Source: an uncultured Gammaproteobacteria bacterium (GTDB lineage Bacteria > Pseudomonadota > Gammaproteobacteria > DRLM01). From it: a stretch of 64,000 bases of DNA. The translations under genes were made by a program, and so were the position numbers. Below the pieces are notes generated by a model. The model did no database searches. It was not told where the DNA came from and saw only the letters and a list, made by a program, of their open reading frames with translations. Positions within the stretch are counted from its first letter, which is position 1; every line of letters starts with the position of its first letter. Below are positions 34,098-46,706 of the stretch, piece by piece. The stretch spans positions 41,079 through 105,078 of the forward strand of contig CAMYKQ010000041.1 of NCBI GenBank assembly GCA_947259075.1, in the 5' to 3' direction.

Positions 34098-34628
34098 ATG
34101 GCGACACGACACATCATCTGCGGCTTCTTCCTGGCGCTCCTCGGCGCCACGGCCCTGGCCGACGGCAATATACCCGAGCGCTTCACCATCGCGCCCGATC
34201 CGGAATTCCGCAGCCTGGATGAAAAAATGAAGACCCTCAACAAAGAGCTGCTCGATCTGCAGCAGGATTTAATGCGCCTGCAAGACGACCTGCTCTCCCC
34301 GGCCACCACCAAGGTCAATATCTTCCTTTCCTTGGACAATCAAACCGATGCCGCGCTTGACTCGGTGCAATTGCAACTGGACAGCCGCACGGTGAACAAC
34401 TACCTGTATACCGCCCGCGAACTCGAAGCCCTGCGCCGCGGCGGCGTGCAACGCCTTTACGACGGCAATATCGCCGTCGGCCCGCATAAACTCACCCTCA
34501 CCATCATCGGCAAGGACGGTAAACACAGCTTCAGCAGCGACTTCGAAAAAGACCTCACCGCGAAATACCTGGAAATCAAGGTCAACACGGCGAATAAAGA
34601 ACGCCCCATGACCATCAAGGAATATTAA
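34098..34628 (+). CDS. Secreted coiled-coil protein (hypothetical, first gene of the TPR/TonB cluster)
   Basis: The signal peptide is MATRHIICGFFLALLGATALA and a coiled coil follows (LNKELLDLQQDLMRLQDDLL). The next gene starts 13 bp after its stop. Confidence 0.5.
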   Translation: MATRHIICGFFLALLGATALADGNIPERFTIAPDPEFRSLDEKMKTLNKELLDLQQDLMRLQDDLLSPATTKVNIFLSLDNQTDAALDSVQLQLDSRTVNNYLYTARELEALRRGGVQRLYDGNIAVGPHKLTLTIIGKDGKHSFSSDFEKDLTAKYLEIKVNTANKERPMTIKEY

Positions 34629-34640
34629 ATCTCACCGGTC

Positions 34641-37600
34641 ATGGCAGCGCGCAGCACAATCCGCATGAAGTGCATCGCGGCCGTCTTACTGGCGGCCGCG
34701 CAAATCGGCGCCGCGCATGCGGCGGACGCCGCACGCGAGCACGCGATCATCAATATGGAACAAGGCGCGGTCACCTATCAAATGCTGCAACAGCGCTACT
34801 TCAGCGCCCTCGATGAATTGCGGCGCATCCGGCGCCTGCCCGAACTGACCCCGCACGAGGCCGACACCGGCCAGACTTTGGCCGAACTGTATATCGCGCT
34901 GGGCCTATCCGATCAGGCCGGCGAAGTCCTGCGCGACTTGAGCGCCAATAAAGATGCCGCCGCCCCCCACGCGCTCTGGCTCAAACTTGCCCGCCAGTAT
35001 TTCCAGCGCGGCTACCTCGTCGGCGCCGAAGCCGCGCTCTCCAACCTCAGCGACCTGCCCCCCGGCCCCATTCAAGCCGAGCGCGATTATCTGCTCGCGG
35101 TCGTCCTGCTGGCGCGCCGGCGTTATCTGGAAGTCATCCCCGTCTCCCATACCCTGCAAGGTCCGGACGAATGGGGTGAGTTCGGCCGCTACAACCTCGG
35201 CATCGCCATGCTGGAATCACGCCGCGGCGACGAGGGCCTCGCGCTGCTCGAGCAACTGGCGCAAAGCCCGGTGCAGGCGGACAGCGTCCCGGGTCTGCGT
35301 GACGAGATCAACATCAGACTCGGCTACTACTTCCTCAAACAAAACGAATTGGACCGCGCGCGCGCGGCGCTGTCGCGGGCCAGCGGCGCCAAGGCCCAGC
35401 TCGGCGCCGGCTGGGCCGATTACCTGCGCGGCGATTACCGCGCCGCGGCGCAAAGCTGGACGGCCTTAAGCCAAGACAACAGCCGCGGCGCCGAGGCCCA
35501 AGAGGGCGTCCTCGCCGCCGCCCGCGCCCTCTACGAATTGCAGGATTACCCCGCCGCGGCCGCGGCCTATAAAAAGGCCTTACAGGTCTACGAAACCGGG
35601 CGCCGCGGCCTCATGCAAGCGGCCGCGGCCGTTAACGACGGCAGCTACATCGGCGCGCTGCTCTCATCCAGTCAAGGCGATGAACAAGCCGGCTGGTATT
35701 CGCGGCCGGGACGCCTGGCCAGCCATCCCGCCAGCGCCTATCTGGCGGAAACCACCAGCGGCCACCTCTTTCAAGAAACCTTCAAAAATTACCGCAACCT
35801 GCATTATATGCAAGACAGCCTGCGCACCAGCGGCGATGACATCGACGCCTACGCGAGCCTGCTCAGCGCGCAACGCGAACACTACTGGCGCCTTTTACCC
35901 AAGATCACCGAGCAGAGCAAAAAGCTCGACCGCTCCGGCGTGCTCAGTGCGGGCGAAGCGCTAAAACGGGAGCTGACGCGCGCCGAATCCGGCGGCGATG
36001 TCGCCGCGCTGGCCAATGGCAAAGAACAACGCCAGCTTAAAATCCTGCGCCGCATCGAGCAGCAGCTTGAGCGCAACAAAGACATTCTCGTCGATCAGCA
36101 GGAGCTTCAGGACAAATACCATCTGCTGCGCGGCCTGCTATTCAGCGACCTGAGCAAGGCCTACCCCACCCGTCTCTGGGAAGCCAAAAAGGCCTTCGTC
36201 GAACTCGACAAACTGATGAGCGAAACCGTGCGCATGCAAAAACTGCTGCATCAAGCCGCCGACAGCGCCAAAGACAACTACACCGGGCAGGAAGGCGCGT
36301 TGAAAAACCTGCGCGCGAAACAGCAACGCCTCTTGGAACAAAGCGGGCGGCTCGCCACGCAACATCAGGCTTATCTCAACACGCTGCTGACGCGCGCGCT
36401 GCAAGAACGCGAACGGCGCTTAGCGCTTTATTTGGCGCAAGCCCGCCTGGGCCTCGCCCAAACCCACGATCAATTGGCGAGCCGCGAAGATAAAGGCGCC
36501 GCTGACTACACCCAGGCCATCGCCGCCTACCGCGCCTTCATCGACGCCGATCAGAGCTCGCCGCAACGGCGTGAAACCCTGCTGCGTCTCGCCCATCTGC
36601 AAATGTTGCAAGCGGAAAACCGCTACAACCAACTCATGGCCAAGGCGGATAAAAATGCCTCGGCCACCACCTCCGCCATCGATGGTATTTATCGAGACGT
36701 CATCGCGACCCTCGCCGAGCTGCTCAAAAACTATCCCGGCCGCGCCGACAATGATCGCGTGCTGTATCAATTGGCCAACGTCTACTACAACACCGGCGAA
36801 ACCGATGCGTTACTAGACACCCTGGATCGTTTGGCCCATGACTTTCCGGCCAGCGCCTATCTCGACGAAGTGCAATTCCGCCGCGGCGAACTCCTGTTCG
36901 CGCTGGGCCTGCCGCAACAAGCGGCGCAGGCCTATGGCGCGGTCGTGGTGCTGGGGCCTGACTCACCCTACTATGAGAAGGCCCTCTACAAACATGGCTG
37001 GTCCATGTACAAGGAAAACCAGCACACCCCCGCCCTCGACTCCTTCCTCTCGCTGCTAGACCGTAAACTCAGCGGCGAAGAAGCGGACCCCAAGGCGCCG
37101 GACGCCGCCGCCAGCCGCGGCGAAGAGGAAATCATCAGCGACGTCTTGCGCGTGGTCAGCCTCAGCCTTTCGCAACTCAACGGCACGCAATCCCTCGCGC
37201 GTTATTTTGAGCGCGTCGGCGCGCGTCCTTATGAGCACCGCCTCTACGCCGGCTTGGCCGAACTCTATCTCGCGCAAGAGCGCATCGAGGACGCCGCCAA
37301 TACCTACCGCGCCTACATCGCCCGCCACCCCGATGACCCGCGCGCGCCGGTGTTCCAAGCCCATGTGCTCAATGCCTACGAAAAAGGCGGATTCACCGGC
37401 CCGCTGCTCGCCAGCAAGGAAGAATTCGTCAAGCGTTACAAACCGGACAGCCCATTCTGGAGCCACAACCCGGAACTGGCGCGTGACGCGACCCTCAAGC
37501 GCGTGCGCGACTACCTGCGCGACTTGGCGCACTACCACCACGCTCGCGCCCAAAGCGCCAAACAGACCGAGGACTACCTCGCCGCCGAACAGTGGTACCG

Positions 37601-46340: not shown

Positions 46341-46346
46341 GCACCC

Positions 46347-46706
46347 ATGCCAAGACCTTCGCGGACCATCACCCTCTTAAGCGCCACGCTCACGGCGGTG
46401 TTAATCAGCATCTGCCAGGCACGCGCCGCGGAACCGCCCGCCCCCGCCACACCGGAGATGGCCACTTACACTTGGCTGAAAAAACACGTATTCGGCCGCT
46501 GCATCTATTGCCACGCCGAGCGCCGCGACCTGCCCTATTTTTTCAGCTATACCTCGACCCTGGGTGTAGTCAGCCCCGGCGACCCCATGAACAGCCGACT
46601 CTATCAAATGGTGGCCAGCGGCCGCATGCCCAAGGGACCCCGCCTGAACGAGGACAAGATCAACGCGATTTACTGGTGGATCAAACACGGCGCGCAAGAC
46701 AACTGA
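46347..46706 (+). CDS. Small secreted putative c-type cytochrome (CxxCH)
   Basis: Has a signal peptide and a single heme-binding motif CIYCH. It is 119 aa and starts 7 bp after the Kelch gene stop. Confidence 0.5.
   Translation: MPRPSRTITLLSATLTAVLISICQARAAEPPAPATPEMATYTWLKKHVFGRCIYCHAERRDLPYFFSYTSTLGVVSPGDPMNSRLYQMVASGRMPKGPRLNEDKINAIYWWIKHGAQDN

Follow-up and report, generated by a model that had tools for sequence, protein, structure and literature searches.

A conserved eight-gene locus of an uncultured gammaproteobacterium very probably encodes a standalone Agl-Glt-type core complex

The window analysed here is a stretch of 64,000 nucleotides of contig CAMYKQ010000041.1, which derives from an uncultured gammaproteobacterium. 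It contains a row of eleven open reading frames (ORFs) on the + strand, and all of them are present at the coordinates given in an earlier reading of this DNA that had been made from the letters alone (the sequence-only reading). Most of the domain calls of that reading were borne out as well: the row encodes a giant secreted tetratricopeptide repeat (TPR) protein, a TPR lipoprotein, a MotA_ExbB-family protein, two ExbD-family proteins, a TonB-like protein, a DUF255/Thioredox_DsbH protein and a Kelch-repeat protein. The recomputed spacings from gene 1 to gene 11 are 12, -29, -4, 129, -4, -4, 2, 74, 31 and 6 bp. Thus, the first gap is 12 bp and not 13 bp, and the earlier statement that all gaps are of 80 bp or less is contradicted by the 129-bp gap in its own list. 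As detailed below, genes 1 to 8 (34098-42848) very likely form a standalone Agl-Glt-type core complex, whereas genes 9 to 11 are lineage-specific neighbours. The core complex is a Tol/Ton-like envelope-spanning machine and the presumed ancestral module of the Agl-Glt gliding and Agl-Nfs spore-coat motors of Myxococcus.

Table 1. Features of the window and, for the genes of the core complex, the counterparts listed for Methylibium and found in the Piscinibacter locus L063.
Feature	Position	Strand	Description	Methylibium	L063
Gene 1	34098-34628	+	176 aa, secreted (signal peptide), first gene of the conserved block
Gene 2	34641-39197	+	1518 aa, secreted TPR protein, GltC-like and GltD-like fusion	GltC: Mpe_A1224, 634 aa (MXAN_2541 homologue); GltD: Mpe_A1225, 941 aa (MXAN_4870 homologue)	GltC: 642 aa; GltD: 962 aa
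Gene 3	39169-39849	+	226 aa, GltE-like TPR lipoprotein, signal ...LLAAFAAGC (AAGC lipobox)	GltE: Mpe_A1226, 243 aa	246 aa
Gene 4	39846-40142	+	98 aa, secreted, "additional gene" of the published core complex	extra gene: tag Mpe_A1227 skipped	124 aa
Gene 5	40272-40925	+	217 aa, AglR-like TolQ/ExbB-family proton channel subunit	AglR: Mpe_A1228, 217 aa	218 aa
Gene 6	40922-41425	+	167 aa, first TolR/ExbD-like subunit, AglQ-like by position	AglQ: Mpe_A1229, 170 aa (vs MXAN_6861)	168 aa
Gene 7	41422-41919	+	165 aa, second TolR/ExbD-like subunit, AglS-like by position	AglS: Mpe_A1230, 163 aa (vs MXAN_6860)	164 aa
Gene 8	41922-42848	+	308 aa, GltG-like TonB/TolA-type transducer	GltG: Mpe_A1231, 371 aa	365 aa
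Gene 9	42923-45004	+	693 aa, DUF255/YyaL-type thioredoxin-domain protein, neighbour
Gene 10	45036-46340	+	434 aa, Kelch-repeat probable lipoprotein (lipobox ILAGC), extra C-terminal domain, neighbour
Gene 11	46347-46706	+	119 aa, secreted, one CxxCH motif (CIYCH), neighbour
Redoxin	33344-33919	+	TlpA/ResA-like periplasmic thiol-disulfide redoxin (CRAC), 178 bp 5' of gene 1
Promoter element	42864-42893	+	sigma-70-like: GGGACA, 18 nt, TATACT; in the 74-bp spacer before gene 9
Spacer	40143-40271		129 bp, between genes 4 and 5
Hairpin	40162-40175		short, GC-rich, within the 129-bp spacer
Reductase-TusA	26972-30130	+	region of the 771-aa nitrite/sulfite reductase-type protein with C-terminal TusA sulfurtransferase domain and its TauE/SafE and LysR neighbours
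Phosphoribulokinase	31473-32348		flanking gene
P-protein subunit gene	52449-53903		glycine cleavage
MT-A70 ORF pair	54075-55581	-	MT-A70 family methyltransferase ORF and overlapping 265-aa ORF
P-protein subunit gene	56158-57528		glycine cleavage
Glycine riboswitch	60215-60375	-	tandem, two aptamers
522-aa ORF	60436-62004

We defined the extent of the conserved unit by a survey across genomes. A database search with gene 8 returned thousands of relatives, several of which are named "AgmX/PglI C-terminal domain-containing protein" by NCBI. Fifteen of these relatives were aligned, and the alignment served as the pattern for a scan of 185,579 genomes, one representative for each GTDB species; at least 585 of 600 pattern-matched stretches encode a relative of gene 8. 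The best 80 of the at least 600 matched stretches were fetched with 10-kb flanks and compared by tblastn with all proteins of the window; the resulting loci carry handles such as L001, and counts below refer to these 80 loci. They derive from Gammaproteobacteria (labelled Chromatiales/Chromatiaceae, Thiodiazotropha, Sedimenticolaceae, Woeseiaceae, Lentisalinibacter, Acidiferrobacterales, Steroidobacteraceae, Sulfurifustaceae and Thiohalobacter) and from Betaproteobacteria (labelled Piscinibacter and Gallionellaceae). Matches to the second half of the block are nearly universal, with 80 loci for gene 8, 79 for gene 7, 77 for gene 6 and 75 for gene 5, and those to the first half are found in 70 (gene 3), 69 (gene 2), 66 (gene 4) and 65 loci (gene 1). 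Gene 9 and gene 10, in contrast, were matched in two loci each and gene 11 in none. Wherever genes 1 to 8 are present, their order and strand are constant and the encoded proteins are about 40-70% identical; the cases in which one of them is missing are mostly loci that end at a contig edge. Thus, match counts of 65-80 as opposed to 0-2 out of 80 delimit genes 1 to 8 as the conserved unit. The sequence-only reading had treated the eleven genes as one unit with a redox module made up of the DUF255, Kelch and CxxCH genes. Co-conservation does not extend to these three genes, and the neighbourhood profiling which that reading had itself proposed confines the downstream adjacency to this lineage, an outcome it had named as speaking against its view. 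The apparently novel composition of eleven genes therefore reflects an eight-gene unit joined to three unrelated neighbours.

It was the AgmX/PglI match of gene 8 that led to the core complex described by Luciano et al. (2011). In that study, close homologues of seven Myxococcus gliding genes (gltC, gltD, gltE, gltG, aglR, aglQ and aglS) were found clustered in a single region of the genomes of several Gammaproteobacteria, of Geobacter and Fibrobacter and of Methylibium as the one betaproteobacterium. The region, which always includes one additional gene without a myxobacterial homologue, is defined there for non-deltaproteobacteria as a single cluster and named the core complex, with its function given as unknown (PMC3169522). 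The same study groups such clusters with Agl/Glt by phylogeny and places an AglR-GltG interaction on record, and the core complex is restated in a later paper (PMC3858216). Genes 2 to 8 match it in order and sizes (Table 1), so that a described system, which the sequence-only reading could not name, does exist. The Methylibium homologues are those of Table S3 of PMC3169522, and L063 is a Piscinibacter locus from our scan, a close relative of Methylibium. Since the ORF order and sizes of L063 match the Methylibium list, the scanned family corresponds to the published core complex. Moreover, for each of four published genomes a single locus tag is left out of the tables at the position of gene 4 (Mpe_A1227, Maqu_1599, Tgr7_0540 and TERTU_3744).

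The locus shares with the core complex of Luciano et al. one co-directional cluster of GltC-like, GltD-like and putatively GltE-like proteins, a small extra gene, AglR, AglQ, AglS and a GltG-like protein, all of matching sizes. It differs in that the GltC- and GltD-like parts are fused into 1518 aa, that gene 1, which is not listed there, precedes the cluster, and that a TlpA-like redoxin is encoded upstream. What is already described is the core-complex kind; what is added here are the fused scaffold, the extra conserved gene and a vestigial redox neighbour. With the Myxococcus Agl-Glt and Agl-Nfs machineries it has in common an AglRQS-type motor, an AgmX/PglI transducer and a TPR scaffold with a lipoprotein. 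In contrast to Agl-Glt, the locus lacks the adhesin CglB as well as the Group A barrels GltA, GltB and GltH and the Group A proteins GltK, GltI, GltJ and GltF. Their genes (gltA, B, H, K, F, I and J) were not found in or beside the block, a statement that concerns the locus only. Gliding is not expected.

The motor is encoded by genes 5 to 7. Gene 5 matches Pfam MotA_ExbB with 104 bits, and its equivalog scores are far under the cut-offs (TolQ, 66 vs 221 bits; exbB, 41.5 vs 206 bits). Its product has the same length as Mpe_A1228 (217 aa), which is annotated as "adventurous gliding motility protein R". Genes 5 and 6 and genes 6 and 7 overlap by 4 bp. The products of genes 6 and 7 match Pfam ExbD with 53 and 58 bits, respectively; the TolR model gives 21 bits for gene 6 and 31 bits for gene 7 (cut-off 127), and ExbD_2 gives 17.6 against a cut-off of 123. 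The two subunits differ at the position of the canonical transmembrane Asp, which is Asn in gene 6 and in 68 of 75 of its homologues, while Asp30 is kept in gene 7 and in 72 of 74 of its homologues. Given this conserved asymmetry, a heterodimeric plug with only one protonatable Asp is probable. The product of gene 8 has a transmembrane helix near its N-terminus, followed by a linker rich in Pro, Lys and Glu and, at the C-terminus, an AgmX/PglI domain. The C-terminal part scores 61.2 bits on the NCBIfam model of that domain (cut-off 40) and in addition aligns with the final 75 positions of the model for the gliding protein GltG. TonB and TolA C-terminal domains are among the PDB fold matches of its predicted structure. 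The TonB models themselves remain under their cut-offs (Pfam TonB_C, 19.6 vs 24.6; TIGR01352, 23.9 vs 27.1).

Residues 1-615 and 620-1518 of gene 2 align with two neighbouring ORFs of about 630 and about 940 aa, which are separate in most loci. The sizes of these GltC- and GltD-like halves equal those of Mpe_A1224/1225 and of Tgr7_0543/0542. A single fused ORF of about 1520-1570 aa is found in eight genomes, namely that of the window and those of L001, L002, L003, L005, L009, L036 and L040, and a sequencing error can be dismissed, as independent assemblies show the same fusion. The TPR repeats of gene 2 that resemble those of YbgF/CpoB and BamD lie mainly in its C-terminal part. In AlphaFold models of the Myxococcus machine that date from 2025, the motor consists of AglR5-AglQ-AglS-GltG, and GltD forms a central periplasmic pillar that binds the C-terminal domain and the linker of GltG and also contacts GltE; the contact between GltD and GltC is small and of the helix-helix type (PMC11761067). 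A natural GltC-GltD fusion fits this predicted contact. Gene 3 matches TPR families, and its position, its lipobox and its size (226 aa vs 243 aa for Mpe_A1226) fit GltE.

Two small secreted proteins accompany the scaffold. In the predicted structure of gene 1 (pLDDT 81), the signal peptide is accompanied by a long helix that spans residues 35-66 and by a beta-sandwich of the transthyretin/Ig type, for which a fold search of the PDB returned generic beta-sandwich matches only. Relatives of gene 1 form about 2000 protein clusters, all unnamed. Gene 1 is a conserved ninth component that is missing from the published core-complex list. Gene 4 lies between the GltE-like and the AglR-like genes and carries a conserved central motif, LxLExTxIxGNRELPKVxYIVPWK; it matches no family in Pfam or NCBIfam. 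Its slot is that of gltF in Myxococcus, which lies between gltE and the next gene. The spacer behind gene 4 is the sole long one inside the conserved block and holds a short GC-rich hairpin, GCGCGGGGGCGCGC, without a clear T-tract. This hairpin could be a processing or attenuation site that parts the scaffold genes from the motor genes.

By homology with the machines named above, the products of the eight genes are likely to work together as follows. The AglR-like product of gene 5 would form a proton channel ring and the products of genes 6 and 7 a heterodimeric plug within it. Proton flow would move the single-pass GltG-like transducer encoded by gene 8 via its transmembrane helix. The Pro/Lys-rich linker of the transducer would cross the periplasm, and its TonB-type C-terminal domain would engage the GltC-GltD TPR scaffold, which in turn would be anchored to the outer membrane through the GltE-like lipoprotein of gene 3 and the products of genes 1 and 4. 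The part of the sequence-only reading which proposed a proton-motive-force-type ExbB/ExbD/TonB-like machine with TPR partners that differs from a classical siderophore TonB system is supported.

The genes that follow the block are of a different kind. Gene 9 matches Pfam Thioredox_DsbH with 234 bits and also Thioredoxin_7. It had been read as secreted or periplasmic, but its sequence opens within the domain itself and a signal peptide is lacking, so that the protein is cytoplasmic. Gene 10 matches Pfam Kelch_1 with 78 bits. Among the 80 loci, L001 and L002 alone have both genes next to the core. They represent the two closest genomes, whose gene 8 is 72% and 70% identical, and in them yajQ comes directly after the Kelch gene. 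Gene 11 is therefore an addition peculiar to this genome, in line with the absence of a tblastn match in any of the 80 loci. For the 119-aa mini cytochrome c that gene 11 had been taken to encode, the CIYCH motif and the signal peptide are present, but no cytochrome family threshold is reached; the best matches are below threshold (NCBIfam LIC11213 lipoprotein family, 40 bits with a cut-off of 100; Pfam Haem_bd, E = 0.016). Other relatives have different genes downstream of the core: L003, L004 and L005, which come next in closeness, carry a large unassigned ORF family about 0.5 kb away, and ApbE, tgt/queA or radical SAM genes are found elsewhere. A consensus scan gave three sigma-70-like matches in 14.5 kb, which equals the chance expectation, and one of them lies in the spacer before gene 9. 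Both of its hexamers, GGGACA and TATACT, are the same in the window, in L001 and in L002, although differences occur elsewhere in the spacer. This invariance across three genomes suggests a separate promoter, so that at least the DUF255 gene probably has a promoter of its own.

Several observations weigh against the assignment of genes 1 to 8 to the Agl-Glt core complex. On the NCBIfam GltE model gene 3 scores a weak 46 bits (cut-off 225), no better than on the PilW, NlpI and PrsT models. The GltC, GltD and GltF models gave no NCBIfam match at E = 10 for the halves of gene 2, for gene 1 or for gene 4. Genes 2, 3 and 5 to 7 are therefore assigned transitively, via Piscinibacter/Methylibium and the published tables, and their names are to be read as putative. 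Gene 8 has a short cytoplasmic N-terminus without the cytoplasmic FHA domain described for Myxococcus GltG, and its transmembrane helix lacks a His, unlike those of TonB and TolA. Stoichiometry, the contacts between the parts and the coupling to the proton gradient are predictions drawn from the homologous Tol, Exb and Agl systems (PMC11761067; PMC12204202). For a role of the core complex outside myxobacteria, our literature search gave nothing past the statements of 2011 and 2013, and a 2025 survey of TolA/TonB-type transducers touches AglRQS just in passing (PMC12204202). Finally, no terminator is predicted in the spacer between genes 8 and 9, and some read-through into the downstream genes is therefore possible.

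The general likeness of the motor to Tol and Ton systems raises the question of whether one of these is encoded instead. The block could be a paralogue of Tol-Pal that tethers or constricts the outer membrane and maintains envelope integrity; its TPR protein would then act like YbgF/CpoB in the Tol system. The block and Tol-Pal share a proton motor of the 5:2-type family and a single-pass transducer whose long linker leads to a C-terminal domain of the TolA/TonB type, as well as TPR repeats resembling those of CpoB/YbgF. TolQ and TolR are indeed the best named models for genes 5 and 7, and the fold matches of gene 8 include TolA C-terminal domains. Gene 2 reaches 121 bits on tol_pal_ybgF (cut-off 90) via its repeated TPR units, besides having BamD-like repeats. 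The TolQ and TolR scores, however, are far under their equivalog cut-offs, and neither TolB nor a Pal/OmpA-like gene is found in or beside the block. Moreover, there are two different TolR-like genes rather than one, and one of these subunits lacks the transmembrane Asp. Together with the AgmX/PglI domain of gene 8 and the published phylogeny, which points to Agl/Glt, this makes a Tol-Pal paralogue unlikely. We regard it as less likely still that genes 1 to 8 power TonB-dependent outer-membrane transporters encoded elsewhere, as an alternative ExbB-ExbD-TonB energiser similar to Vibrio TonB2/Ttp; such a role seems very improbable even though the ExbB- and ExbD-family domains, the TonB-type C-terminal fold of gene 8 and an associated TPR protein are shared and several sources annotate relatives as "protein TonB". 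As the sequence-only reading had stated, there is no TonB-dependent receptor in or near the cluster, and none lies within about 12 kb on either side. The TonB_C and TIGR01352 scores are under their cut-offs, and the helix of gene 8 has neither a His nor an SHLS-type motif. In the Vibrio TonB2/Ttp set, TtpB (DUF3450) and TtpC, a long MotA/ExbB-family protein, are encoded upstream of exbB2-exbD2-tonB2 and TtpD, a TPR protein, downstream. Here, gene 1 has no DUF3450 match, the only MotA_ExbB gene encodes 217 aa, so that a long TtpC-like gene is lacking, and the TPR genes lie upstream and are far larger; the resemblance to TonB2/Ttp noted earlier is therefore not the closest one. In the Myxococcus model, the homologous C-terminal domain binds GltD and not a receptor plug (PMC11761067).

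A further alternative concerns the extent of the unit, namely that all eleven genes form one operon and encode a proton-driven envelope machine with a redox/binding module of DUF255, Kelch and mini-cytochrome c proteins. The genes are co-directional, the last three spacers measure 74, 31 and 6 bp without a predicted terminator after gene 8, and DUF255 and Kelch genes also trail the core in L001 and L002. These are, however, the only two of the 80 loci in which they do so, the CxxCH gene occurs in none, and other relatives have different genes in this place. Since the DUF255 protein moreover lacks a signal peptide and its gene is preceded by the conserved promoter-like element, we consider an eleven-gene machine highly unlikely. 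Apart from these readings, a Zorya-type defence system and a flagellar stator were rejected on domain content, as no MotB/OmpA-like and no long ZorA-like protein is encoded; no dedicated search was made for either.

The surroundings of the Agl-Glt-type core complex in its relatives revealed a recurrent set of redox genes. When the flanking ORFs of the 80 loci were clustered and identified with Pfam, ApbE was found beside the block in 37 loci, with the same orientation and on one side or the other. A TlpA-like redoxin precedes gene 1 on the same strand in 32-33 loci and again in L081, and DUF3570, likewise on this strand, is encoded directly upstream of gene 1 in 16 loci. Pieces of the module occur in the flanks of most of the loci L007 to L080. 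In L007 and L067, where such pieces lie at 600-920 and 650-900, respectively, a small CxC lipoprotein ending in GGGCGCN, the DUF4266 signature, is encoded between the redoxin and DUF3570. At least one gene of this module lies within about 2.6 kb in 39 of the 46 loci that have enough flank on both sides, in six gene combinations and upstream or downstream of the core. ApbE, DUF3570, a thioredoxin-like protein and DUF4266 make up a flavinylation-associated extracytosolic redox system of unknown function, in which ApbE flavinylates DUF3570; ExbB/ExbD and TPR partners are not mentioned in that study, and TonB is named once, as a receptor in unrelated PepSY-like clusters (Meheust et al., 2021; PMC8238504). 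Thus, all four gene types of the module occur directly beside the core in relatives. The window differs in that ApbE, DUF3570, DUF4266, DUF3187 and the radical SAM neighbour are absent from the whole 64 kb, as established by tblastn for ApbE, DUF3570, DUF3187 and radical SAM. The redoxin upstream of gene 1, the counterpart of the thioredoxin-like member, is the sole remnant of the module here. It is of the AhpC-TSA/Redoxin type and not of the Thioredoxin_7 type (Pfam AhpC-TSA, 76 bits; Redoxin, 64 bits; NCBIfam ResA, 76 bits, under its cut-off). The DUF255 protein was rejected as a candidate for the thioredoxin-like member, as it has no signal peptide, comprises 693 aa and is adjacent in two of 80 loci.

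Because 39 of 46 well-flanked loci from different species carry genes of the module in six combinations, and because the window keeps the redoxin, the core complex could be functionally coupled to the module, with DUF3570 as the outer-membrane partner of the GltC-like part, as GltC is with the GltA/B barrels in Myxococcus. We put this forward tentatively, as a possibility that is more doubtful than probable. The association may instead reflect inherited linkage within related lineages, and a literature search found no paper that reports a link between the core complex and the flavinylation module. None of the window's core proteins contains [ST]GA[ST], the motif at which ApbE flavinylates, and so none is an obvious ApbE substrate. 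Many of the neighbouring DUF3570 proteins in relatives carry SSAS instead of the canonical flavinylation motif, and the C-terminus of DUF3570 is aromatic and resembles that of outer-membrane proteins. If the coupling were true, the motor would energise or position an outer-membrane redox protein. Motors of the Tol/Ton type would then have a new use, and there would be a first hint at what the ancestral gliding core does.

Two observations on these neighbours may be added. The redoxin of the window has an unusual active-site motif, CRAC, which is also found in L001, while distant homologues, such as that of L007, have WCGPC; as called, its ORF includes a long N-terminal extension before the hydrophobic signal. 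In 16 loci, a DUF3187 protein, which is probably an outer-membrane protein, is encoded divergently upstream of the core, and ApbE then lies downstream of gene 8. These are Thiodiazotropha/Sedimenticolaceae loci (e.g., L016, L020 and L055), in which the DUF3187 gene is found about 0.4-1.5 kb upstream of gene 1 on the opposite strand.

The core complex is widespread, and the gliding and spore-coat motors of Myxococcus are presumed to descend from it. The present locus offers several clues: the GltC-GltD fusion, which supports the predicted scaffold contact, gene 1 as a ninth component, the Asn/Asp asymmetry of the plug subunits and the redox neighbourhood. Tractable bacteria that also carry the core include Marinobacter, Cellvibrio, Saccharophagus and Shewanella frigidimarina. 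The survey also corrects the idea that the DUF255, Kelch and mini-cytochrome proteins belong to the machine.

Finally, the flanks of the cluster contain topoisomerase I, peroxiredoxin, a LysR regulator, TauE, a sulfite reductase-TusA fusion, phosphoribulokinase, PAP2 and the TlpA-like redoxin as well as YajQ, an MFS transporter, a GGDEF-EAL protein, a PfkB kinase and glycine-cleavage genes. Ahead of the reductase-TusA gene lie a gene for a TauE/SafE sulfite exporter and the divergent LysR regulator, and together with phosphoribulokinase these genes suggest an autotrophic, sulfur-metabolising host. Between the two P-protein subunit genes of the glycine-cleavage system lies the MT-A70 ORF pair, where the GC content dips to 0.55; this segment may be an inserted restriction-modification or mobile piece. 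A tandem glycine riboswitch (67.7 and 40.3 bits for the two aptamers) is found downstream of the 522-aa ORF and 5' of the - strand ORFs that lead to the glycine-cleavage genes, which is an ordinary arrangement.

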